Shown here piece after piece: positions 2,659 to 34,026 of a DNA stretch of 64,000 nucleotides. Location of the stretch: NCBI RefSeq assembly GCF_055900595.2, contig NZ_CM148325.1; one strand, 5' to 3'. How positions within the stretch are numbered: position 1 is the stretch's first letter; each line of letters begins with the position of its first letter. Below the pieces are notes generated by a model, which worked only from the letters and a program-made list of their open reading frames with translations, was not told where the DNA came from and did not search any database. Position numbers and translations under genes: made by a program.

Positions 2659-3321
2659 ATGGCTTATCGCGACCAACCTTTAGGTGAACTGGCGCTCTCT
2701 ATTCCTCGCGCTTCGGCTCTGTTTCGTAAATATGATATGGATTACTGCTGCGGCGGTAAGCAAACGCTGGCGCGTGCGGCGGCACGTAAAGAACTGGATG
2801 TTGACGTCATTGAAGCCGAACTGGCAAAGCTTGCTGAACAACCGATTGAGAAAGACTGGCGTAGCGCCCCACTGGCGGAAATCATCGACCATATCATCGT
2901 GCGCTACCACGATCGTCACCGCGAGCAGTTGCCGGAGCTGATCCTGCAAGCTACCAAAGTCGAGCGCGTTCACGCCGACAAACCGAGCGTGCCAAAAGGG
3001 CTGACAAAATACCTGACCATGCTGCATGAAGAGCTTTCCAGCCACATGATGAAAGAAGAGCAGATCCTCTTCCCGATGATCAAACAAGGCATGGGTAGCC
3101 AGGCGATGGGGCCAATTAGCGTAATGGAAAGCGAGCACGATGAAGCGGGCGAACTGCTGGAAGTGATTAAACACACCACCAATAACGTCACACCGCCGCC
3201 GGAAGCCTGCACCACCTGGAAAGCGATGTATAACGGTATTAATGAATTGATTGATGACCTGATGGATCACATCAGCCTGGAAAACAATGTACTGTTCCCA
3301 CGCGCGCTGGCGGGTGAGTGA
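2659..3321 (+). CDS. ytfE: Iron-sulfur cluster repair di-iron protein YtfE (RIC)
   Basis: 220-aa ORF; RBS GAGG upstream; translation recognised as E. coli YtfE. Confidence 0.92.
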
Positions 3322-3365: not shown

Positions 3366-4778
3366 TTACTTCCGCAGTTCAGCAGTCCGCTTCTTACCAA
3401 TAAACAACCAGCCCAACCCCAGCGCGATAAACCACAGCGGGGTAACCAGCAGCGCCTGGCGAGTGTCATCTTCCAGTGTCAGCAACACGACCACGAACAC
3501 AAAGAACGCCATACATACCCAGCACATCAGCTTGCCGAGCGGCATCTTGTAGATCGACTTCTCATGCAGATGAGGTCGCTGTTTGCGATACACCAGGTAT
3601 GAGCAAAGGATAATCGTCCAGACGAACATAAACAGAATCGCGGAAACAGTCGTGATCATCGTGAACGCGCCAATTACACTTGGATTCACATACAACATCA
3701 CCACGCCGCCGAGCAGACAGATACAAGAGAAGGTCAGCCCTTTCGCGGGCACGGCGCGCTTAGAAAGTTTAGCGAACGCTTTCGGCGCAACACCTTCCTG
3801 GGCCAGACCAAACAGCATACGGCTGGTAGAGAAGACGCCGCTGTTAGCGGAAGACGCCGCAGAGGTCAGCACCACAAAGTTGATTACGCTGGCAGCCGCA
3901 GGCAAACCCACCAATACAAAAAGTTCAACGAACGGGCTTTTCTCCGGGACTACTGAACTCCACGGCGTCACGGACATAATCACAATCAGCGCGAAGACGT
4001 AGAACATAATGATACGGATCGGAATGGAGTTAATCGCGCGTGGCAGTGATTTCTCCGGATCTTTGGTTTCCGCAGCGGTTGTACCGACCAGCTCAATCCC
4101 CACGAAAGCGAATACCGCTATCTGGAATCCGGCAAAGAAGCCACTTAAACCTTTCGGGAACCAGCCGCCGTCATTCCACAAATGCGCAAACGACGCTTCC
4201 ACACCGGTCGGTGACTGGAAGTGCATCATGACCATGATCAAACCGACAACAATCAGTGACACGATGGCGACAATTTTGATCATCGCAAACCAGAACTCCA
4301 TCTCACCGAACATTTTCACGGTAGCGAGGTTGAGCGTCAGCAGCAGCACTATCACCGCCAGCGAGGCGACCCAGTCGGAGAGATCGGGGAACCAGAACTG
4401 AGCATAGGCCGTGATGGCCACCACGTCCGCCATACCGGTAACCACCCAACAGAACCAGTAGGTCCAGCCAGTAAAATACCCTGCCCACGGCCCCAGTAGA
4501 TCGGAAGCGAAGTCACTAAAAGATTTGTATTCCAGATTCGAAAGCAGCAATTCCCCCATTGCCCGCATCACGAAAAAGAGCATAAAACCGATGATCATAT
4601 AAACGAAGATGATCGACGGTCCGGCAAGACTGATTGTTTTACCGGAACCCATAAACAGCCCTGTACCAATGGCCCCACCAATGGCAATAAGCTGGATATG
4701 TCGGTTTGTGAGATTGCGCCGTAGCGACTGTTCAGCCGGAGCCTGTTCTTCGGCAACGACTTTTACCTGATCTACCAT
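3366..4778 (-). CDS. cycA: D-serine/D-alanine/glycine:H+ symporter CycA (APC family)
   Basis: 470-aa polytopic membrane ORF recognised as E. coli CycA. Confidence 0.93.
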   Translation of the reverse strand: MVDQVKVVAEEQAPAEQSLRRNLTNRHIQLIAIGGAIGTGLFMGSGKTISLAGPSIIFVYMIIGFMLFFVMRAMGELLLSNLEYKSFSDFASDLLGPWAGYFTGWTYWFCWVVTGMADVVAITAYAQFWFPDLSDWVASLAVIVLLLTLNLATVKMFGEMEFWFAMIKIVAIVSLIVVGLIMVMMHFQSPTGVEASFAHLWNDGGWFPKGLSGFFAGFQIAVFAFVGIELVGTTAAETKDPEKSLPRAINSIPIRIIMFYVFALIVIMSVTPWSSVVPEKSPFVELFVLVGLPAAASVINFVVLTSAASSANSGVFSTSRMLFGLAQEGVAPKAFAKLSKRAVPAKGLTFSCICLLGGVVMLYVNPSVIGAFTMITTVSAILFMFVWTIILCSYLVYRKQRPHLHEKSIYKMPLGKLMCWVCMAFFVFVVVLLTLEDDTRQALLVTPLWFIALGLGWLFIGKKRTAELRK

Positions 4779-9844: not shown

Positions 9845-11386
9845 ATGCGTAAGATAACAACCGCCGAGACACTGGCGGCGCAAATTCAGGACGGCGCAAC
9901 CATTGCCATTAGCGGTAATGGCGGCGGCATGGTGGAAGCGGACCATATTCTGGCTGCTATTGAAGCGCGTTTCCTGCAAACCGGACACCCGCGCGATCTG
10001 ACATTAATCCACTCACTGGGCATTGGCGATCGCGACTGCAAAGGCACTAACCGCTTCGCTCATGCAGAGATGCTCAAACGCATCATTGCCGGACATTTTA
10101 CCTGGTCGCCCAAGATGCAGGATCTGGTGAAAAACAATGCTATTGAAGCCTACTGCTTCCCTGGTGGCGTAATTCAGGCACTGCTGCGGGAGATCGGTGC
10201 CGGACGTCCAGGGCTTTTTACCCACGTTGGGCTGGGATCGTTTGTTGATCCGCGCAACGGCGGCGGTAAGTCGAACGCTAGCAGCACTGAGGATCTGGTA
10301 GAACTGATTGAAATCGACGGTGAAACCAAACTTCGTTATCGCCCCTTCAAAGTGGACTACGCGATTTTGCGTGGCACTTATGCCGATCCGCGTGGCAACG
10401 TCAGCCTCGAAGAAGAGGCGATTGATATGGATAGCTATTCCATGGCGCTGGCAGCACACAACAGCGGCGGCAAAGTGTTCGTACAGGTGCGCGATGTGCT
10501 GGAAGCTGGTGCCATTGAACCACGCCGGGTCAAATTACCGGGCATTCTGGTTGATGGCATCGTTGAACACCGCGAACAACCGCAAACCTATCTTGGCGGT
10601 TACGACCTGACCATCAGCGGTCAGCATCGCCGTCTAAGTTCTAACGACGCAATTGAACTGGTTAGTCATCCGGTGCGCCGCCTGATTGCCCGTCGGGCAG
10701 CACGCGAACTGGTGGCTGGCGCTTCAACCAACTTTGGCTTTGGCATTCCCGGCGGCATTCCTGGGGTTGCACTGCGCGAAGGCGTGCCTTATCAAAGTTT
10801 ATGGCTGAGCGTAGAACAGGGTGTACATAACGGCATGATGCTGGATGATGCTCTGTTCGGCTGCGCCCGCAACGCCGATGCCATTATTCCATCACTCGAT
10901 CAATTCGAATTCTACAGTGGCGGAGGGATCGATATCACCTTCCTCGGCATGGGAGAGATGGATCAGTACGGTAACGTCAACGTCTCCCATCTCAATGGCA
11001 ATCTCATTGGCCCCGGCGGATTTCTCGAAATTGCGCAAAACGCCCGTAAAGTGGTGTTCTGCGGCACGTTCGACGCCAAAGGTAGCACGATTGATGTAAC
11101 ACCAGATGGCTTGCATATCGCCCAGTCAGGTCAAATCCCTAAACTGGTTACCCAGGTGGAAAAAATCACTTTTAGCGCCGCCTACGCACAGCAAAGCGGT
11201 CAGGAAGTGTTGTATATCACTGAACGTGCAGTATTCCAGTTAACAGCAGAAGGCGTTGAATTAATTGAAATCGCACCAGGTGTGGAGATTGAGCGCGACA
11301 TTCTGCCGCATATGGCCTTCCGTCCAATTATCAATCAGCCACGCCTGATGGAAAGTAGCCTGTTTACGCCGATGGAGGATGCATGA
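9845..11386 (+). CDS. Family-I CoA-transferase (fused alpha/beta, YdiF / propionate-CoA-transferase-like)
   Basis: 513 aa; N-terminus TAETLAAQIQDGATIAISGNGGGM and size match acyl-CoA:acetate/3-ketoacid CoA-transferases; RBS AAGGA. Confidence 0.75.
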   Translation: MRKITTAETLAAQIQDGATIAISGNGGGMVEADHILAAIEARFLQTGHPRDLTLIHSLGIGDRDCKGTNRFAHAEMLKRIIAGHFTWSPKMQDLVKNNAIEAYCFPGGVIQALLREIGAGRPGLFTHVGLGSFVDPRNGGGKSNASSTEDLVELIEIDGETKLRYRPFKVDYAILRGTYADPRGNVSLEEEAIDMDSYSMALAAHNSGGKVFVQVRDVLEAGAIEPRRVKLPGILVDGIVEHREQPQTYLGGYDLTISGQHRRLSSNDAIELVSHPVRRLIARRAARELVAGASTNFGFGIPGGIPGVALREGVPYQSLWLSVEQGVHNGMMLDDALFGCARNADAIIPSLDQFEFYSGGGIDITFLGMGEMDQYGNVNVSHLNGNLIGPGGFLEIAQNARKVVFCGTFDAKGSTIDVTPDGLHIAQSGQIPKLVTQVEKITFSAAYAQQSGQEVLYITERAVFQLTAEGVELIEIAPGVEIERDILPHMAFRPIINQPRLMESSLFTPMEDA

Positions 11387-14825: not shown

Positions 14826-14836
14826 TTATTTTAAAT

Positions 14837-14868
14837 AAAAACGCTATAATTGAGGTTATGGCGTTTTT
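14837..14868 (+). terminator. Intrinsic terminator after the MFS transporter gene
   Basis: Hairpin aaaacgctataa/ttatggcgtttt (one mismatch) with short loop, followed by a T-run, 12 nt past the stop codon. Confidence 0.55.
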
Positions 14869-15094
14869 AAAGAAGCTTGAGTTATCGAACCTAGCTTACC
14901 AACGCGTTGTCAGTCATCTCCCCCCTCCCTGGTGCATCGTTATATCCGTGATGAGCGATTTTTGATATTAATATCTTTCACCATCCGCTATTTTCACCAC
15001 TTCAGAAAACAAACTTATTTTTATTAATATCAATTCTTTTTCTTTGAACATTCAACTGCGATATTTGTAAAAATATTAAACAGGCAACAATAAA

Positions 15095-15889
15095 ATGACA
15101 TTACCAACAACTATTTATTCATTCCCCGCATATTTACCTCGTTTTTCGTCCACCGACAAACCAGCAAAACTAAAATTTCATCAATACGCACGCGCTACAT
15201 TACTGTCAAATCGTGGAAGAGATCATAATTGCGATGGCAGACGTACTGTTGAGATCCACAAACTAGATCTCTCAGACTGGCAAGCATTCAATAAGCTAGC
15301 GACGAGGTGTAATACTTACGATGGAATAACAATGAATGGTGATAATTCTTTTGGATGGAACCATGAAGCTACATTAGATAATATTCACGCCCAGAAATAC
15401 AATAAAGCTTACGCGGGTGCGCGGTTAACCGCAGAACTGAAATATTTATTGCAAGATGTCGAATCCTTCGAACCCAACAGTAAATACACAATACACGAAG
15501 TGGTTTTGGGACCTGGTTATGGTACTCCAGACTATACCGGCCAAACGATAGGATACGTTGTAACCCTTCCTGCCCAAATGCCTAATTGCTGGTCATCTGA
15601 ACTACCAACAATCGATCTTTATATCGACCAACTTCGCACTGTTACAGGCGTTTCTAATGCCCTCGGATTCATCATTGCTGCATTGCTAAACGCGTATTCT
15701 GATTTACCCCATGATTTGAAAATTGGTCTACGTTCCTTATCAAATTCAGCCGCAATCTACTCGGGTTTAGGTTTCGAGCGAGTGCCGCAGGACCGAGACA
15801 TAAGGAGTGATCGTATGCATCTAACGCCAGCAAACCATCCTGACTTATGGACACAAGAGAATGGTGAATGGATCTACTTGCGAAATTAA
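15095..15889 (+). CDS. yjfZ: Uncharacterised protein YjfZ
   Basis: 264-aa ORF, AT-rich, preceded by an AT-rich 270-bp intergenic region; size and position next to rplI match K-12 yjfZ. Confidence 0.75.
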   Translation: MTLPTTIYSFPAYLPRFSSTDKPAKLKFHQYARATLLSNRGRDHNCDGRRTVEIHKLDLSDWQAFNKLATRCNTYDGITMNGDNSFGWNHEATLDNIHAQKYNKAYAGARLTAELKYLLQDVESFEPNSKYTIHEVVLGPGYGTPDYTGQTIGYVVTLPAQMPNCWSSELPTIDLYIDQLRTVTGVSNALGFIIAALLNAYSDLPHDLKIGLRSLSNSAAIYSGLGFERVPQDRDIRSDRMHLTPANHPDLWTQENGEWIYLRN

Positions 15890-15911
15890 TGCCTGACGAA
15901 AAATAGAAAGC

Positions 15912-18066: not shown

Positions 18067-18075
18067 ATGCGCCAT

Positions 18076-18627
18076 TCAACGAATAACGACTTCCGGATCC
18101 GGCTCATGAGTAATGCGATTACGTAAGTCGCGGCGCATAATTTCTATTATCCAGAACCAGAAAATGTGCCCAAGGATTTCAGATGCATATTCGTCAAAAG
18201 GCAATTGAGTGAGCGGCGGCGTTAAATTCAGCGCCGGGCAAAATATACCGTGGACTGCCACTGTCACAATAAGCCCTGCTAATATCCCCTGCCATAATTT
18301 CACTTTCGGGAAAATTTCCGCGACCACACAATACCCTATCGCAAAAACCAGTGAGAAGATGATATGCGTCACCATCACCGGGTTGATAATATGTTCCGAG
18401 AATGTATACACAGTTTGGGTTGGGTCGATCCCTAAATAATCCCGTAGAAAGATATACGGCGGATTAAACTCATCGCGACCACCGGAAAATGTGCGCGGTG
18501 GCAAGGGAACTTCCGCTCCCCATTTAACAAATGCTGAAATAATTCCTGAAAGTACACCCACAAGTAACGCAACGCCATAACGGCGACGCTGCGGATCCGT
18601 TCTGACAAACAATCCGTTGATAGCCAT
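18076..18627 (-). CDS. Putative inner membrane protein, YagU/DUF1440-like
   Basis: 183-aa ORF with several hydrophobic helices; segments [37 protein letters not shown] resemble the YagU family as I recall it; I do not recall a gene at this position in K-12. Confidence 0.6.
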
Positions 18628-18723
18628 AAAAACACCTGTTGTTTATACGATTTTTTAACTGAAACGGCCCCGGAATCAGACCAATTACATCCCGCAGGAG
18701 GTAATAATTCCGGGGCGCACTGC

Positions 18724-28951: not shown

Positions 28952-30115
28952 TTAGCCAGCAATATAATGCGGAACGAAACGTGAGGTGTCTTTGGTGATC
29001 AGCGTGTTATCTTCACGGATCCCCATTCCGCACGCTTCATCATCAACAATCCAGCTACCAATGAGTGTGTAGCTATCGCCAAATCGTGGCAGAGGTTGAA
29101 ATGCCTGGTAGATCATCGGTTCATCGGCATAATCACCCTCAGCGTGGTCAACGACGTTATTCTGACCATCGAAAATGGTGACGTTACCGCCCTCGCGTGA
29201 GTAGATCGGTTTACGCACATAGCTTTCGCCAGCGGCAATCTGCGGTTTTTCGCCATCAAACCAGGATGCAAGTAGGTTAGGATGACCAGGAAAGAAGCGC
29301 CAAAGCAGCGGCATTAACCCTTTGTTGCTCAAGATACTTTTCCATAACGGCTCCACCCATTGCTCGCGGCGCTTGCGCAGCAGCGGACCGTTATCGTCAC
29401 GCATCATCCATTCCAGCGGATACAGCTTAAATGCACGCTGGATGACATTATCATCAAGATCGGTCAGTACACCGCCGACGCCTAAACCGAGATCTTCAAT
29501 GTAGATAAACCGTGACTCCTGCCCAGCCTGCTGAGCGCAGTCCTGCAAGTACAGCACAGTACTCCTGTCTTCGTCGGTATCCTGACAACAGCAGAAATAA
29601 AACGGTTCCCGACTGTAAAGCTCGCTAAAACGCGAAATCAGGCGTTCCTGAATGGCATTGTACTGATCGGCATCACGCGGAATACTGCCGCTACGCCGCG
29701 CATCTTCCAGCCACAGCCACTGGAAATAAGCCGACTCATACAATGAGGTCGGCGTATCGGCGTTGTACTCCAGCAGCTTCACCGGCGCATTACCACACCA
29801 GGCAAAATCCATCCGACCATACAGCGAAGGATCGCGTGCGCGCCAGCTTTCAGCGATCACATCCCAGTACAGCGGGGGGATCGCCAGTTGCGTCAGGATC
29901 TCTTCGTCTTGAACCGCACGATCCACCACCTCAAGGCACATCTGATGCAGTTCCGCAGTTGGTTTTTCGATCTGCTCTTCTATCTGCCGCAGAGTAAAGC
30001 GGTAAGCCAGACTCTCATCCCAATAAATTTCATTATCGATGATATGAAAGTCGAAACCGTTGTCGGCGGCGATCTGGTCCAGATCCCGTCGTACAGGAAC
30101 GTTGTGTCTCAGCAT
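28952..30115 (-). CDS. yjfC: Glutathionylspermidine-synthase-like ATP-grasp protein YjfC
   Basis: 387-aa ORF, last gene of the yjfKLMC unit. Confidence 0.88.
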   Translation of the reverse strand: MLRHNVPVRRDLDQIAADNGFDFHIIDNEIYWDESLAYRFTLRQIEEQIEKPTAELHQMCLEVVDRAVQDEEILTQLAIPPLYWDVIAESWRARDPSLYGRMDFAWCGNAPVKLLEYNADTPTSLYESAYFQWLWLEDARRSGSIPRDADQYNAIQERLISRFSELYSREPFYFCCCQDTDEDRSTVLYLQDCAQQAGQESRFIYIEDLGLGVGGVLTDLDDNVIQRAFKLYPLEWMMRDDNGPLLRKRREQWVEPLWKSILSNKGLMPLLWRFFPGHPNLLASWFDGEKPQIAAGESYVRKPIYSREGGNVTIFDGQNNVVDHAEGDYADEPMIYQAFQPLPRFGDSYTLIGSWIVDDEACGMGIREDNTLITKDTSRFVPHYIAG

Positions 30116-30117
30116 GA

Positions 30118-30756
30118 TTAGCCTCCCCAGTGCCCACGGGCGCTGGAAGAACGACCATAGCCGCCGCGAGAAACAGTTGACGCTTTTCTGGTGGTAAAGC
30201 CGCCCGAGGAGTAAGACTCTTTTTTGCCAGAACCGGAGCGCCAGGAGTAATCACCGGAAGTATTGCGCCAGACGGGGCGGGAAGCAAATGAGGATCCACC
30301 GCTGTTATAAACGAACGGCTCATCGCGATCTTTACGAATAACCCGGCTTAATAAAAATCCAGAAATGACCGGGATCCAACTCTGTTCAACATTGTCGTAG
30401 TAGCAATTTTCGTACTTAGACTGACAATTCTGCTGAGTCATATTCTTCGGAACATCGGCATAAAATGCCGCTTTGGCATTGTTCCAGCCATGAGCACAGA
30501 TATCTGAATTATTACCGTCATCAATACAATCCTGCACTGTCGAGTAAAACGTTCCGTCACCGTCGTTATCGACATCACCACTATCGCCACAACCTTTCAA
30601 TACAAAAAAAGCTGCACCGCCCATTAGCGCCAACGTTAAGTATTTTTGTGCGTAGCGATTGCGTCGCGGCTCAAAAGGATTATTAGGTCTTCCAATGCGA
30701 CTGATCGCTCCGTGACCAATTTTACTGTTATTTCTTGATTTGCGTTTTCTGGCCAT
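30118..30756 (-). CDS. yjfM: DUF1190 protein YjfM
   Basis: 212-aa ORF with N-terminal basic segment and Gly/Ser-rich C-terminus. Confidence 0.85.
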   Translation of the reverse strand: MARKRKSRNNSKIGHGAISRIGRPNNPFEPRRNRYAQKYLTLALMGGAAFFVLKGCGDSGDVDNDGDGTFYSTVQDCIDDGNNSDICAHGWNNAKAAFYADVPKNMTQQNCQSKYENCYYDNVEQSWIPVISGFLLSRVIRKDRDEPFVYNSGGSSFASRPVWRNTSGDYSWRSGSGKKESYSSGGFTTRKASTVSRGGYGRSSSARGHWGG

Positions 30757-30765
30757 GATCGTCCA

Positions 30766-31164
30766 TTACCATGTCATACAAGCTGCGTTAAAAATACCGC
30801 CAGCCAGCGCGGCGGTTCCCATAAACATTCCTGCTGCGGTATTGTGATTAATAATTTTTTCGCTTAATGCTGGCATATAAAGTCTGACGCCAGCAAAAAC
30901 GAGTAACTGAATCACCAGTGCGATCCCGCCCCAGGCAAAATAATCCGGAATACTCACCGCATTGATTGCCGCACTAGATAATGGGATCACGTAACCCAAC
31001 AATGTACCACTGAACGCCAGTGCCGCCGCGGTATTATTGTTTTTAATTAACTGCCATTCGTTGTGCGGTGTAATTTTGGAGTAGATAAACAGAAAAATAA
31101 TCACCATAGCCACGCCAATAAAAAAATAGGCGCTAAAGGCAAGAAGTGAATCCAGTATATGCAT
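30766..31164 (-). CDS. yjfL: DUF350 inner membrane protein YjfL
   Basis: 132-aa hydrophobic ORF. Confidence 0.85.
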   Translation of the reverse strand: MHILDSLLAFSAYFFIGVAMVIIFLFIYSKITPHNEWQLIKNNNTAAALAFSGTLLGYVIPLSSAAINAVSIPDYFAWGGIALVIQLLVFAGVRLYMPALSEKIINHNTAAGMFMGTAALAGGIFNAACMTW

Positions 31165-31181: not shown

Positions 31182-31841
31182 TTAACCAATAATATGAAGT
31201 GATGTCAGTGGGATATCAACACCCAGTGCGCGCGAAAATAACCACTCCGGCTCGCCGAGATCGTTAAAAGATTCCTCACCATTTAACAGCAAATATTCAC
31301 AGGTATCTTCGGTCACCTGCCGTTCATAGCCCATGGTAAAATTATGCACTTCCCATTTGGCGTGGTTTTGATTTTCAACTTTTTCCAGCATATAGACGGG
31401 TTCGATATTCCCCGGTTCTTCGCTGTTAAAAAATCGCTGCCAGCGTTTTTCCTGCCAGTTTAAAGTCATTGCCCCCATCGCTTTGGCATTGATCGCCTCG
31501 CGCCAGTGGCTCTCTTTACTGATACCGTAGCTCTCTTCATAGACAAAGAGCTTGATATCATCAATGTCATCAATATCTTCGCCGCCGGTGGTATTGATTT
31601 GCAGAAATTCATCGCCCGAAGTGTAGTAGCGGAAAATCTGACTACCGCCGCCCAGATCGATGTGGCTGACAGCGGCTACCGTAAATTCTTCACCCGGCAG
31701 CGCAATCAGCAATTCATCTTCCAGCAAACGAAACGCTAACGTGTCGAGCGTAAAGCCGCTATTGAGATGAAGTCCCAGTGGGCCACGTGCGATTGCAGGT
31801 TTATCATCCTTACCAAACAGACGCTTGAAAAAACTTGTCAT
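31182..31841 (-). CDS. yjfK: DUF2491 protein YjfK
   Basis: 219-aa ORF; start codon overlaps the stop of the upstream channel-like gene (ATGA). Confidence 0.85.
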   Translation of the reverse strand: MTSFFKRLFGKDDKPAIARGPLGLHLNSGFTLDTLAFRLLEDELLIALPGEEFTVAAVSHIDLGGGSQIFRYYTSGDEFLQINTTGGEDIDDIDDIKLFVYEESYGISKESHWREAINAKAMGAMTLNWQEKRWQRFFNSEEPGNIEPVYMLEKVENQNHAKWEVHNFTMGYERQVTEDTCEYLLLNGEESFNDLGEPEWLFSRALGVDIPLTSLHIIG

Positions 31842-32908
31842 ATGCTTCCCTCAATGTCCTGCCATGCCACTTCTTCAGCCAAAATACGGTTATTGCCAAT
31901 AAGATGCAGCCACATACCGCCTTTAACTTCCGTTGCAATGACTGGATTCAGTTCCATTCCCCTACCATTTTTACAACTGCTTATTCCCAGGACGGTGGCA
32001 TCATGATGAAGTTTCATATAATGCATCAATGCGCCATAACGCATTGAGGTAACCCGTTCAGGAATCGGTAAAACAAACCCCGTATCCCCCAGCATTGGAT
32101 TCATAATCGATGCCACTGATTGAGATGAACCGGGATCTTGTATTGAACGGGAAAGTTGTTCTGCTGAAATATTTCGCACTATTTCAATACGTTGACAATG
32201 AACCTCTAATAAACGAGCGTAGCGTTCATCTTCCAGATAAGCGACGATATGGCATCTTTCAGGAATAAAATCCGCCAGGGATAGTGCGGTCGTGAACGTC
32301 TGCTCATCAGTTTGCGAAAAGATGATGACACTTTGGCAATTTGCCAGTCCCATGCGGGTATGTTCATGCGGATCATTAAAATTACTAATACGAATGAAAT
32401 CGACCCAATTATTTCCAGGCATCGGATGTTGAATATCATCCCGCTCACACAAAAGTACCCGGCCAAATGCTCTTCGGGAATCAAACAACAATAATGAAAT
32501 CATCTTTTCAGTCTGATGCCCGCGCCATCCAATGACCAGCATATGGTTGCGCAAATTGCTGTAGTCGCCCATTCCCGTCATTCCTTTCGCCAATATGTCT
32601 TGCACTAATGCAATGACTTTTCCCATTAAAGCGCCAAATAAACCAACACTCACAGGAATCTGCCAGAGCGCTGTGAACAGACGTCCCCCCACCGTTTGGG
32701 GTGTGATATCACCAAACCCCAGCGTTGATCCCACAACCGAGCAGTAATAAATAAAATTACTCAGTTGACCTACCAACGCCTCTTCATGCAACGCAGTTAA
32801 CACCAGATAACAAAACAGATACTGTCCTGTAAATAATCCAGTCAATGCCGGCCAGGTAAGCCTGGAAAGGTGACGTCGGCAGGTTTTAATGATCCATGAG
32901 AAGAACAT
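31838..32908 (-). CDS. Two-TM K+-channel-like membrane protein with a C-terminal cytoplasmic domain (possibly RCK/TrkA-like), inserted between yjfJ and yjfK
   Basis: 356-aa ORF; hydrophobic helix - pore-loop TLGFGDITP - hydrophobic helix; C-terminal soluble domain with VIGWRG segment; about 43% GC in sampled stretches and rare codons CGA/AGA/AGG/GGA/TTA seen; coupled by TAATG to yjfJ and ATGA to yjfK. Confidence 0.8.
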   Translation of the reverse strand: MFFSWIIKTCRRHLSRLTWPALTGLFTGQYLFCYLVLTALHEEALVGQLSNFIYYCSVVGSTLGFGDITPQTVGGRLFTALWQIPVSVGLFGALMGKVIALVQDILAKGMTGMGDYSNLRNHMLVIGWRGHQTEKMISLLLFDSRRAFGRVLLCERDDIQHPMPGNNWVDFIRISNFNDPHEHTRMGLANCQSVIIFSQTDEQTFTTALSLADFIPERCHIVAYLEDERYARLLEVHCQRIEIVRNISAEQLSRSIQDPGSSQSVASIMNPMLGDTGFVLPIPERVTSMRYGALMHYMKLHHDATVLGISSCKNGRGMELNPVIATEVKGGMWLHLIGNNRILAEEVAWQDIEGSI

Positions 32909-33606
32909 TACTCGCCCTGTTGGCGTTGCAGTCTTGCTAATACATCCTGGGCGCTACTTTTGTTGCTACCGCCAATTCCGGCTTCCGCCAGTTTTTCATC
33001 AAGATCGCGACCATCTGCCACTTTTTCCAGCTGTGCGGCAGCATCCAGGCGAGCTTGACGTTCGGCCTGACGCGTTTGCAGACGCTTTAAGGATTCTGCC
33101 GCTGTCGAAACGCTGGAAGATGCGCCAACAGTAGAGGTCGTTACGGCCTGTTGTGCACGCTGCATGGCTTCAGTAGCTTTAACGACTTCCATTTGTTGCT
33201 CAAATTGAGCGATACGCTGTGCTGTCGCTGTAACCGCTTTTTCCACACCATCGCGAGAGACTTCCAGATTCGACAACACTTGCTCTTCAGCGGTAATGAC
33301 ATTCTCAAGACGGGCGATTTCTTCAGCAACTTCGTTAATCAACGACGGATTAACATTCTTGCTTAACGCTTCCAGCGCGCGAGCTTCCAGACTGGCTTTA
33401 CGCTCACGCAAATCTTTCAGTTTATCGTTGCTCAATTTCACTCTTGCCAGTAGATCGACACGTGATTTACCGGCCTTATCCAGTTCTGCTTTGGCATCGC
33501 GTATATGCTGTTCAAGCATTCTAACGCCCTGTGCTTCTTCAATGGATTCTTCCGCTTGCGAGATCACCGATTTACCCAGCGTAAATAAAGTTTTTAAAAT
33601 TCCCAT
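32908..33606 (-). CDS. yjfJ: PspA/IM30-family protein YjfJ
   Basis: 232-aa coiled-coil-rich ORF. Confidence 0.9.
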   Translation of the reverse strand: MGILKTLFTLGKSVISQAEESIEEAQGVRMLEQHIRDAKAELDKAGKSRVDLLARVKLSNDKLKDLRERKASLEARALEALSKNVNPSLINEVAEEIARLENVITAEEQVLSNLEVSRDGVEKAVTATAQRIAQFEQQMEVVKATEAMQRAQQAVTTSTVGASSSVSTAAESLKRLQTRQAERQARLDAAAQLEKVADGRDLDEKLAEAGIGGSNKSSAQDVLARLQRQQGE

Positions 33607-33624: not shown

Positions 33625-34026
33625 TTAATGTGAATATTCTTCTGTAATTTCAGCAAGATCCAAAGCGTTATCTACCAGCGTGGTTATTTCCAGCAGGATA
33701 TCTTCAAGAGAAGATTTAAGCGATAACGCCCCGAAAACAATGTAATACTCTTCCTGTTGCACGCTGGAGATCCCTACCGATGACAACGGCATCATCTTCT
33801 GATTTCTTAATAAGAAGGTATGAAATTCATCTGGATTGCTGATACTACTTACCGGGCAAATAAAGGTTTCGATGATCATTTGGCGGGAAGTAAAAAGAAT
33901 ATTGATTTGCAAATCGCCATAATCATTCATTTTAATAATTAATGCGTTTTCATTATTTGTTACATCAATATTTTGTTCAGGTACAGTTTGCAGCGCCGTC
34001 GCCAGCGCCAACGGATTCCATGTCAT
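33625..34026 (-). CDS. yjfI: DUF2170 protein YjfI
   Basis: 133-aa ORF, first gene of the yjfIJ unit. Confidence 0.85.
   Translation of the reverse strand: MTWNPLALATALQTVPEQNIDVTNNENALIIKMNDYGDLQINILFTSRQMIIETFICPVSSISNPDEFHTFLLRNQKMMPLSSVGISSVQQEEYYIVFGALSLKSSLEDILLEITTLVDNALDLAEITEEYSH

Follow-up and report, generated by a model that had tools for sequence, protein, structure and literature searches.

A potassium channel gene in the yjf operon of Escherichia coli cryptic clade I is probably an ancestral operon member and not a recent import

The 64,000-nucleotide stretch of DNA analysed here (referred to as the window; NCBI RefSeq assembly GCF_055900595.2, contig NZ_CM148325.1) carries, between yjfJ and yjfK, a gene for an MthK-like K+ channel. 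This gene is very likely an ancestral member of the enterobacterial yjfI-yjfJ-channel-yjfK-yjfL-yjfM-yjfC operon, which was kept in clade I and lost from E. coli sensu stricto, and not a recent import. Indeed, the channel does not appear recently foreign because the same slot and overlapping junctions recur across genera, low GC content extends over the whole operon, and synonymous sites are saturated.

The channel gene belongs to one co-directional cluster, comprising a DUF2170-PspA dyad, the K+ channel, DUF2491, DUF350, DUF1190 and a GSP-synthase-like ATP-grasp protein (RefSeq products for this locus, Pfam labels on orthologous loci). The features discussed below are:

33625..34026, minus strand: yjfI (DUF2170; classed as CesT/Tir-like in PMC11237479), the operon's first gene (RefSeq annotation; PMC11237479)
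32908..33606, minus strand: yjfJ (PspA/IM30 family), upstream operon partner of the channel (RefSeq annotation)
32906..32910, minus strand: TAATG junction, yjfJ stop/channel start, 1-nt overlap (read in the sequence)
31838..32908, minus strand: channel gene, 356 aa (ORF list and translation; RefSeq WP_000466338.1, 'potassium channel family protein', in the identical record NZ_CP098223.1)
32600..32785, minus strand: predicted pore module, residues 42-103, with pore helix, selectivity filter and inner helix (Pfam Ion_trans_2 PF07885, E 1.7e-10; AF2 helices 19-39 and 73-111)
32708..32725, minus strand: selectivity filter T62-L-G-F-G-D67, acg ctg ggg ttt ggt gat (read in the sequence; family alignment)
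31841..32551, minus strand: predicted cytoplasmic RCK-like domain, residues about 120-356, Rossmann-type N-lobe plus C-terminal lobe (weak TrkA_N match; MthK profile; Foldseek)
31838..31841, minus strand: ATGA junction, yjfK start/channel stop, 4-nt overlap (read in the sequence)
31182..31841, minus strand: yjfK (DUF2491), downstream operon partner of the channel (RefSeq annotation)
31776..31841, minus strand: 5'-terminal 66 nt of yjfK, forming the right part of a divergent patch (comparison of typical E. coli with the window)
28952..31164, minus strand: yjfL (DUF350), yjfM (DUF1190) and yjfC (glutathionylspermidine-synthase-like ATP-grasp), remainder of the operon (RefSeq annotation)

An operon type combining a CesT/Tir-PspA pair, a polyamine ATP-grasp ligase and a K+ channel has already been described as the 'third group' of Ravi et al. 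(mSystems 2024; PMC11237479). The window locus is an example of that type, with no differences in architecture, and the gene is thus an ordinary, already annotated channel within an operon type already known to include one. Compared with this type, it is the much-studied E. coli K-12 version, which lacks the channel, that is derived.

The gene product is predicted, from its sequence and structural model, to be a single-pore, two-transmembrane, MthK-like K+ channel with a C-terminal RCK-type domain. No family-invariant residue is missing from the intact, full-length protein, and the filter follows the pattern T-[VIL]-G-[YF]-G-D across 129 family members (G64, G66 and D67 in 129/129; T62 in 121/129). 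The AF2 model places helices at residues 19-39 and 73-111, a pore helix at 49-61 and nothing else N-terminally, followed by a strand/helix alternation at 122-257; this is a monomer model of moderate confidence (pLDDT 72.5, with the filter below 50, as expected for the monomer of a tetramer). Both by sequence profile (match to MthK residues 3-245, E 2e-7, spanning pore and RCK over residues 5-259) and by fold (full-length MthK as the top Foldseek matches, E 4e-13, TM about 0.6, with isolated MthK RCK domains also among the top matches), the best solved relative is MthK, the Ca2+-gated K+ channel of Methanothermobacter (PDB 1LNQ, 6U68, 8DJB). The two proteins share size and architecture, namely two transmembrane helices, a pore helix, a TxG[YF]GD filter and one RCK, but are only 15-18% identical, and the glycine motif in the RCK N-lobe of the channel, G-W-R-G-H-Q-T, is unlike the classical nucleotide motif. 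In MthK, the acidic residues D184, E210 and E212 of the RCK domain bind Ca2+, and soluble RCK made from an internal start codon contributes to the octameric gating ring. For the channel described here, K+ conduction and gating by an intracellular ligand are predicted. An MthK-style internal start at M113 that would yield a soluble RCK is only weakly suggested: the motif AAAGGA (or AAGGGA) lies 9 nt before an ATG/TTG at codon 113 in 9/11 enterobacterial loci, the ATG/TTG itself being present in 11/11, and across the 129 family members position 113 is M in 22, L in 24 and K in 20, such that M is not conserved family-wide.

The gene order rlmB-yjfI-yjfJ-channel-yjfK-L-M-C-aidB also exists in Citrobacter (three species), Enterobacter, Atlantibacter (two), Buttiauxella and 'Serratia microhaemolytica', and in the single S. 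enterica locus that was read the channel lies at this position too. Over their full length, the channel orthologues share 56-87% identity. Relative to Citrobacter, the channel is 79-82% identical, in line with its neighbours (yjfK 74-81%, yjfI 67-71%, yjfM 64-69%), which points to an old operon member. A distant metagenomic relative (L018) has kept the channel-DUF2491-DUF350-DUF1190-GSP_synth portion with a 4-nt overlap, and two of the three distant channel relatives examined stand alone, outside the operon.

At the border between yjfJ and the channel, the minus strand reads ggcgagTAATGttcttc, with one base common to the yjfJ TAA (32910-32908) and the channel ATG (32908-32906), while at the other border it reads ggaagcatATGAcaagt, with a four-base overlap of the yjfK ATG (31841-31839) and the channel TGA (31840-31838). 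Both junctions had been noted in an earlier, sequence-only reading of this DNA and were confirmed by reading them directly. That reading had, however, regarded seamless junctions together with an odd composition as an unusual pairing, a view that we do not share, since the overlapping stop/start codons appear to be the conserved ancestral arrangement of the yjf operon. TAATG is found at the yjfJ/channel junction in 8/9 loci from other lineages, and the ATGA overlap with the aligned yjfK start recurs in Enterobacter, the two Atlantibacter, C. sedlakii and another Escherichia lineage (L004); two Citrobacter have a 1-nt channel/yjfK overlap, and Buttiauxella and 'Serratia microhaemolytica' have small gaps. 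Overlaps of 1 nt and 4 nt are common, and two further same-strand pairs in the window display them (11383-11386; 19410). Here, they would let ribosomes arriving from yjfJ translate the channel and then move on to yjfK, as expected for translational coupling.

The low GC content and the rare codons on which the earlier reading had commented hold for the whole gene. Its GC content is 44.7%, compared to 51.6% for the window, and its GC3 is 0.42, compared to a mean of 0.554 (sd 0.076) for the 57 window ORFs. The codons AGA, AGG, CGA, CGG, GGA, ATA and CTA account for 8.1% of the gene (mean 2.9%, sd 2.1), and the strings of rare codons encoding DSRRAF and SRLTWPALTGL are indeed in frame. The CAI of 0.188 is the lowest of the 57 ORFs (mean 0.349, sd 0.116), calculated with Sharp and Li E. 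coli weights; absolute CAI values are to be taken with caution, but ranks within the window depend little on the weights. Measured against these ORFs, the codon statistics are therefore outside the normal range, and the observation stands, though with another meaning. As a mark of a foreign gene the composition fails, given that in every genus examined the whole operon is low in GC relative to its rlmB and aidB flanks (9/9 loci from other genera) and the channel is codon-poor, with a CAI among the lowest (0.19-0.27). In the window, the operon partners are likewise low (GC of 38% for yjfI, 44% for yjfL, 47% for yjfK and 48% for yjfM; GC3 of 0.42 for yjfJ), so that, compared with adjoining genes, the channel is not atypical in GC or GC3 and stands out only in CAI and rare codons. 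Its CAI is worse than that of the operon partners (0.25-0.36), and some gene-specific codon effect beyond the operon-wide bias remains. Low GC3 and poor codon adaptation thus appear to be long-standing properties of the whole operon that are strongest in the channel, and poor codon adaptation fits a protein needed in few copies, with presumably low expression, and not a recent import. More generally, such features within a conserved operon can be old and stable, and recent transfer is not required to explain them.

Among 5,426 complete E. coli genomes, the channel is present in 18, each time at least 99.5% identical and as an intact annotated CDS. The same 18 are the only genomes with at least 99% identity at hflX-purA, a second locus at which they form a separate class, and 15 of them also lead at mscM-yjeM. 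Two of the carriers, EC42405 and 2013C-4282, are among the strains with complete genomes in a study of cryptic clade I (Okuno et al., BMC Biol 2023, PMC10100065). The window therefore represents E. coli cryptic clade I, a lineage that kept the channel. A locally imported segment, considered as the reason for the 93-95% flank identity to typical E. coli, was rejected because hflX-purA distinguishes these 18 genomes as well, and mscM-yjeM 15 of them. [quoted passage not shown] Across the wider genus it is not clade-I-specific, as L004 also carries it. This was the only further Escherichia genome with the channel among the 10 loci obtained in one scan of species-representative genomes, a result that does not decide between presence and absence in E. 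albertii, E. marmotae, E. ruysiae, E. whittamii or the representative of S. enterica. Given that at least five other genera share the slot and the overlaps and that the channel is absent from 5,408 of the 5,426 genomes, the earlier suggestion of an old gene that was fitted to the operon and since lost by K-12 is essentially right.

The loss was not as clean as had been proposed. Typical E. coli carry, between yjfJ and yjfK, a 50-bp spacer with a terminator-like hairpin (10-bp stem) and a separate Shine-Dalgarno sequence for yjfK, and E. fergusonii, in which the channel is also absent, has a 162-bp spacer with a homologous hairpin. No channel remnant was detected in the 50-bp spacer (local alignment score 17 versus a shuffle mean of 16.6) or in the 162-bp spacer (22 versus 20.0), and the envisaged scar of an in-frame replacement or deletion is likewise not found at the E. 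coli junction, where the spacer has no significant similarity to the channel. By eye, the likeness between spacer and channel is limited to purine-rich sequence immediately before the yjfK ATG, presumably the ribosome-binding site. The difference extends 66 nt into yjfK, where typical E. coli differs from the window at 12/66 positions (the following 66 nt and the 66 nt at the end of yjfJ have 1/66 each) and is closer to E. fergusonii (7/66). The divergence between typical E. coli and the window thereby rises from ~1.5% to 18% within the patch, while that between the window and L004 is uniform (~6%) across both patch boundaries. The channel-less allele lies in a short, sharply bounded patch of different ancestry, common to E. 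fergusonii, and most likely entered by homologous recombination, a direction that we infer from these sequences.

Alternatively, the ancestor of E. coli and clade I might have lacked the channel, and clade I might have regained it by homologous recombination from a channel-bearing Escherichia, for example, a SCPM-O-B-8794-like lineage. Such a history would agree with the absence of the channel from E. fergusonii, the coincidence of the presence/absence boundary with the recombination patch, and the visibly mosaic yjf operon across Escherichia, in which two classes of yjfI alleles are ~77% identical and a further patch covers the 5' part of yjfJ. However, it is typical E. coli that switches at the boundaries, becoming E. 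fergusonii-like, and not the window, and the channel itself is ~4% divergent between the window and L004, whereas a recent import would be nearly identical. We therefore regard regain as distinctly unlikely and favour loss from E. coli sensu stricto as the probable history.

Recent horizontal transfer, in which low GC content and rare codons stem from a donor genome and the gene was inserted precisely between yjfJ and yjfK, is very improbable. Both the lowest CAI of the window, along with its excess of rare codons, and the small number of carriers would be expected from such an event, but the carriers form a whole-genome lineage instead of a scatter, and the slot, the junctions and the operon-wide low GC content are the same in at least five other genera. 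Moreover, synonymous sites are saturated relative to the nearest non-Escherichia copies, those of Citrobacter and Salmonella (pS 0.74-0.84), leaving no recent donor in sight, and the annotation of the RefSeq record NZ_CP098223.1 shows no mobility genes, tRNA or repeats beside the channel. A recently acquired genomic islet was rejected on similar grounds, namely the shared slot in five or more genera, borders made of overlapping stop/start codons and the lack of annotated mobility genes nearby.

That the channel is a functionless, decaying relic with poor codon usage due to relaxed selection is scarcely credible, since, despite the decay or loss seen in Salmonella, typical E. coli and E. fergusonii, the gene is intact in the window and in 18/18 carriers and is under purifying selection (dN/dS of 0.067 between the two Escherichia lineages, the window and L004). 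The Salmonella decay, comprising a nonsense codon at position 75 of the channel in S. enterica (one genome) and a remnant of ~170 bp in S. bongori (spacer alignment score 30 versus a shuffle maximum of 27), is independent of the loss in E. coli. The 90% cluster that contains the Salmonella channel also mixes in YjfJ proteins, and its 1,960 members therefore do not gauge how frequent intact channels are in Salmonella.

According to the favoured reading of an ancestral channel, the complete yjf operon would constitute a PspA-like membrane-stress and polyamine-ligase module, whose channel clade I would have kept, while E. coli sensu stricto would hold an imported, channel-less hairpin allele with its own ribosome-binding site for yjfK. 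One might speculate that the RCK-like domain, with its conserved G-W-R-G-x-Q-T motif, senses a product or substrate of the YjfC ligase, such as a polyamine conjugate, or else responds to how YjfJ is assembled, thereby coupling membrane damage to K+ flux, and that E. coli sensu stricto broke this link, its hairpin uncoupling yjfIJ from yjfKLMC. We consider this idea tentative and rather unlikely; if true, K-12 would be misleading as a model of how the operon functions. Irrespective of it, the poorly understood PspA-like module yjfIJKLMC of K-12 would be a derived version minus one ancestral component, and a clade I strain, or a Citrobacter or Enterobacter species with an intact channel, might be the better choice for studying how YjfJ and its partners function.

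Two other identities of the channel were considered. E. coli Kch (NCBIfam NF007828/PRK10537) gave the sole NCBIfam match (residues 45-256 to profile positions 175-378), and in both proteins a K+ pore precedes an RCK; however, Kch has six transmembrane helices compared to two in the channel, its chromosomal locus differs, and the score of 34.4 bits is far from the curated equivalog cut-off of 425, so the channel was rejected as a Kch orthologue. A two-pore-domain (K2P) channel was likewise rejected, as the 356 aa contain a single Ion_trans_2 match and a single filter motif; some records carry the name 'two pore domain potassium channel family protein', which is a misnomer.

The gene between yjfJ and yjfK overlaps both of its neighbors, and the sequence confirmed the TAATG and ATGA junctions claimed for its two ends in the sequence-only reading:

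31838–32908, minus strand: channel open reading frame of 356 codons (ORF list and translation)
32910–32906, minus strand: TAATG junction, 1 base common to the yjfJ TAA stop and the channel ATG
31841–31838, minus strand: ATGA junction, 4-base overlap of the channel TGA with the yjfK ATG

The chromosome of E. coli Z0117EC0005 (NZ_CP098223.1) matches the window at 100% identity, and on it RefSeq names the product 'potassium channel family protein' (WP_000466338.1). The annotated gene order is yjfI-yjfJ-channel-yjfK-yjfL-yjfM-yjfC, with yjfJ encoding a PspA/IM30 protein and rlmB and aidB flanking the cluster.

Judged by its sequence and predicted structure, the protein appears to be what the annotation implies, an ordinary MthK-like K+ channel. 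Pfam places an Ion_trans_2 pore module at residues 42–103 (E 1.7e-10), together with a weak TrkA_N match. The selectivity filter reads T62-L-G-F-G-D67, an instance of the pattern T-[VIL]-G-[YF]-G-D, which hardly varies among 129 aligned members of the family. MthK was the best solved relative in a profile search built from 16 orthologues (E 2e-7, channel residues 5–259 versus MthK 3–245), the match spanning the pore and the RCK domain. The AlphaFold model (pLDDT 72.5) comprises two long membrane helices and a pore helix, a Rossmann-type strand/helix domain and then a C-lobe; Foldseek matched it best to full-length MthK structures (E 4e-13, TM ~0.6), with Slo1 and isolated RCK domains of MthK ranking next. 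The family counts 178 representatives (50% clustering, E below 1e-30), nearly all 340–360 aa long. In place of the classical dinucleotide motif, the RCK N-lobe carries a conserved G-W-R-G-x-Q-T motif. A Kch orthologue was ruled out (score 34 bits, cut-off 425), as was a two-pore-domain channel, the name found in some records, given the single pore domain.

Orthologous loci were collected by scanning species-representative genomes and then by tblastn with the window proteins. Their common order was (rlmB-)yjfI-yjfJ-channel-yjfK-yjfL-yjfM-yjfC(-aidB), and the channel-containing order was found in Citrobacter sp. On2M, C. youngae, C. sedlakii, Enterobacter sp. ENT03, two Atlantibacter species, Buttiauxella massiliensis, 'Serratia microhaemolytica' and a second Escherichia lineage (locus L004, labelled E. 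coli SCPM-O-B-8794). The yjfJ/channel TAATG recurred in 8/9 loci, and the channel/yjfK junction was ATGA or a 1-nt overlap in most of the nine. With taxonomic distance, channel identity dropped in parallel with that of the operon neighbors; for C. youngae it was 82% for the channel, 81% for yjfK, 68% for yjfI and 69% for yjfM. In a distant metagenomic relative (<50% identity), channel and DUF2491 overlap by 4 nt and are followed by DUF350, DUF1190 and GSP_synth, while a fused DUF2170-PspA pair is divergently transcribed; two further distant relatives stand alone. An operon class of this type is already described (PMC11237479), and the conserved gene order argues that the channel is an ancestral part of it.

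The low GC content and rare codons seen earlier in sampled stretches hold for the whole gene, with 44.7% GC versus 51.6% for the window overall and seven rare codons making up 8.1% of its codons (window mean 2.9%, sd 2.1). Across 57 window ORFs, its GC3 of 0.42 lies below the mean (0.554, sd 0.076) and its CAI of 0.188, calculated with the Sharp and Li E. coli weights, is the lowest (mean 0.349, sd 0.116). Reading this composition as a foreign mark proved untenable, since low GC is common to the operon genes (yjfI 38%, yjfL 44%, yjfK 47%, yjfM 48%; yjfJ has the same GC3 of 0.42). Across the nine loci of other lineages, rlmB and aidB on either side likewise exceed the operon genes in GC, and channel CAI is low throughout (0.19–0.27), which indicates that the compositional signature is old and operon-wide. 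The rare-codon excess alone is stronger in the channel than in the rest of the operon, and may mark a protein made in small amounts.

Synonymous sites are saturated between the channel and its Citrobacter and Salmonella copies (pS 0.74–0.84), and dN/dS is 0.067, with dS 0.15, between the window and the other Escherichia copy, which argues for long divergence under purifying selection. No mobility genes are annotated near the channel in the RefSeq record either, and the gene is very unlikely to be a recent import.

Among 5,426 complete E. coli genomes, 18 carry the channel, each at an identity of at least 99.5%, and these carriers are not randomly scattered. They are the only genomes with at least 99% identity in the hflX-purA region, 5–12 kb away; at mscM-yjeM, ~22–28 kb from the channel, 15 of the 18 top the list at 98–100%, the remainder being at most 96.6%. 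The window is ~94.5–98% identical to an E. coli B strain by aligned block, with some 500-nt windows lower, and the closest sensu stricto genomes are 1.2–3.5% distant, conserved genes included. Two carriers, EC42405 and 2013C-4282, are among the complete-genome strains of a study on cryptic clade I (PMC10100065), and the 90% cluster of the channel protein includes entries from genomes of that study. Because the carriers are set apart at several loci and include clade I strains, the whole window is assigned to cryptic clade I, which carries the channel throughout the sampled genomes.

Two Escherichia lineages have a channel-less junction:

L002 (typical E. coli locus), 3843–3892: yjfJ-yjfK spacer of 50 bp, TAAtttttttgccagcctcgctaaaaggctggcaactattttaaggataaaatATG
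L014 (E. fergusonii locus), 2836–3000: yjfJ-yjfK spacer of 165 bp, without the channel

The 50-bp spacer contains a hairpin with a 10-bp stem (−18.6 kcal/mol over a 66-nt stretch, z −2.4), whose stems TTGCCAGCC...GGCTGGCAA lie immediately 3' of the yjfJ stop. A simple scan found it terminator-like with a poor T tract, and the spacer also provides yjfK with its own ribosome-binding site, AAGGA. The E. fergusonii spacer starts with a homologous hairpin of different loop and identical stems, which are kept although the flanks are only ~80% identical. In typical E. coli, the hairpin may split or attenuate the operon. Similarity between the 50-bp spacer and the channel gene was not significant. No scar was detected at this junction, and the loss is not an in-frame excision.

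Mismatches of E. coli B around the channel-less junction
Last 66 nt of yjfJ: 1 versus the window, 11 versus E. fergusonii
yjfK nt 1–66: 12 versus the window, 7 versus E. fergusonii
yjfK nt 67–132: 1 versus the window, 16 versus E. fergusonii

The divergent patch around this junction has sharp boundaries, across which the window and L004, both with the channel, differ uniformly by ~6%. The simplest reading is that a short patch of different ancestry brought the channel-less hairpin junction into sensu stricto, clade I having kept the ancestral state. We regard the reverse direction, in which clade I re-acquired the channel, as improbable. With a patch acquired by sensu stricto, the earlier idea of an old gene lost by K-12 holds insofar as the gene would be ancestral and kept in clade I, and changes in that the loss would have come through a recombined, hairpin-bearing spacer.

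Mosaicism of the yjf operon within Escherichia is strong. In this genus, yjfI (33625–34026) falls into two allele classes of ~77% nucleotide identity, one in the window and typical E. coli, the other in L004 and E. fergusonii. In yjfJ (32908–33606), a 5'-terminal stretch of ~200 nt is 94–96% identical among the window, L004 and E. fergusonii, versus 78–83% to typical E. coli. E. fergusonii yjfK, yjfL, yjfM, yjfC and aidB (L014 3001–6660) share only 69–82% identity with either E. coli lineage, a distance similar to that of Salmonella or Citrobacter, and the adjoining rlmB is 96% identical; this suggests an old replacement of the yjfK-aidB segment in one lineage.

In one S. enterica genome the channel is in place (L015 1958–3028) with an in-frame stop at codon 75, leaving ORFs of 74 and 267 aa. 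In S. bongori, a ~170-bp remnant composed of the 5' and 3' gene ends persists (L016 2999–3172). This independent decay indicates that the channel was repeatedly dispensable in the operon. Intact Salmonella copies seem uncommon in the protein collection; the 90%-identity cluster of a Salmonella channel (P0004) also holds many 232-aa YjfJ (PspA/IM30) proteins, presumably a clustering artefact that inflates the apparent channel count. The original observation is real and the thing seen ordinary and known in kind: an annotated channel in a described operon type, apparently kept by cryptic clade I, whereas sensu stricto has a recombined spacer with a hairpin in its place. Modestly new points are limited to two, namely that the loss allele is mosaic and that the channel has decayed more than once.

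By analogy with the MthK family and the described operon class (PMC11237479), four subunits would form a K+-selective pore, with cytoplasmic RCK domains building a gating ring that opens it upon ligand binding. The 1-nt overlap would tie channel expression to the PspA-like YjfJ and the 4-nt overlap would hand on to yjfK; channel levels would be held down by rare codons and by the absence of a strong start context of its own. From gene neighborhood alone, the channel may be tied functionally to the handling of membrane stress and to polyamine chemistry. A soluble RCK domain could arise from an internal start, as in MthK: AAAGGA, which resembles a Shine-Dalgarno sequence, is followed 9 nt on by ATG at codon 113 (window 32569–32586, codons 108–113). 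Conservation of this start found no support across the wider channel family; among enterobacterial loci, AAAGGA/AAGGGA occurs in 9/11 and ATG/TTG at codon 113 in 11/11, both Atlantibacter loci having TTG (Leu).

Elsewhere in the window, 18067–18661 has no alignment in the E. coli B strain, where yjfY lies close by; the stretch holds a 183-aa ORF (18076–18627, minus strand, GC 47%) with no NCBIfam match. yjfZ (DUF2686; ORF 15095–15889, plus strand, region 14829–15903) has 42% GC, a GC3 of 0.36 and a CAI of 0.189, a codon adaptation as poor as that of the channel. The E. coli B strain lacks yjfZ, and ~47% of complete E. coli genomes have it; it fits the picture of a variable, foreign-looking gene better than the channel does.
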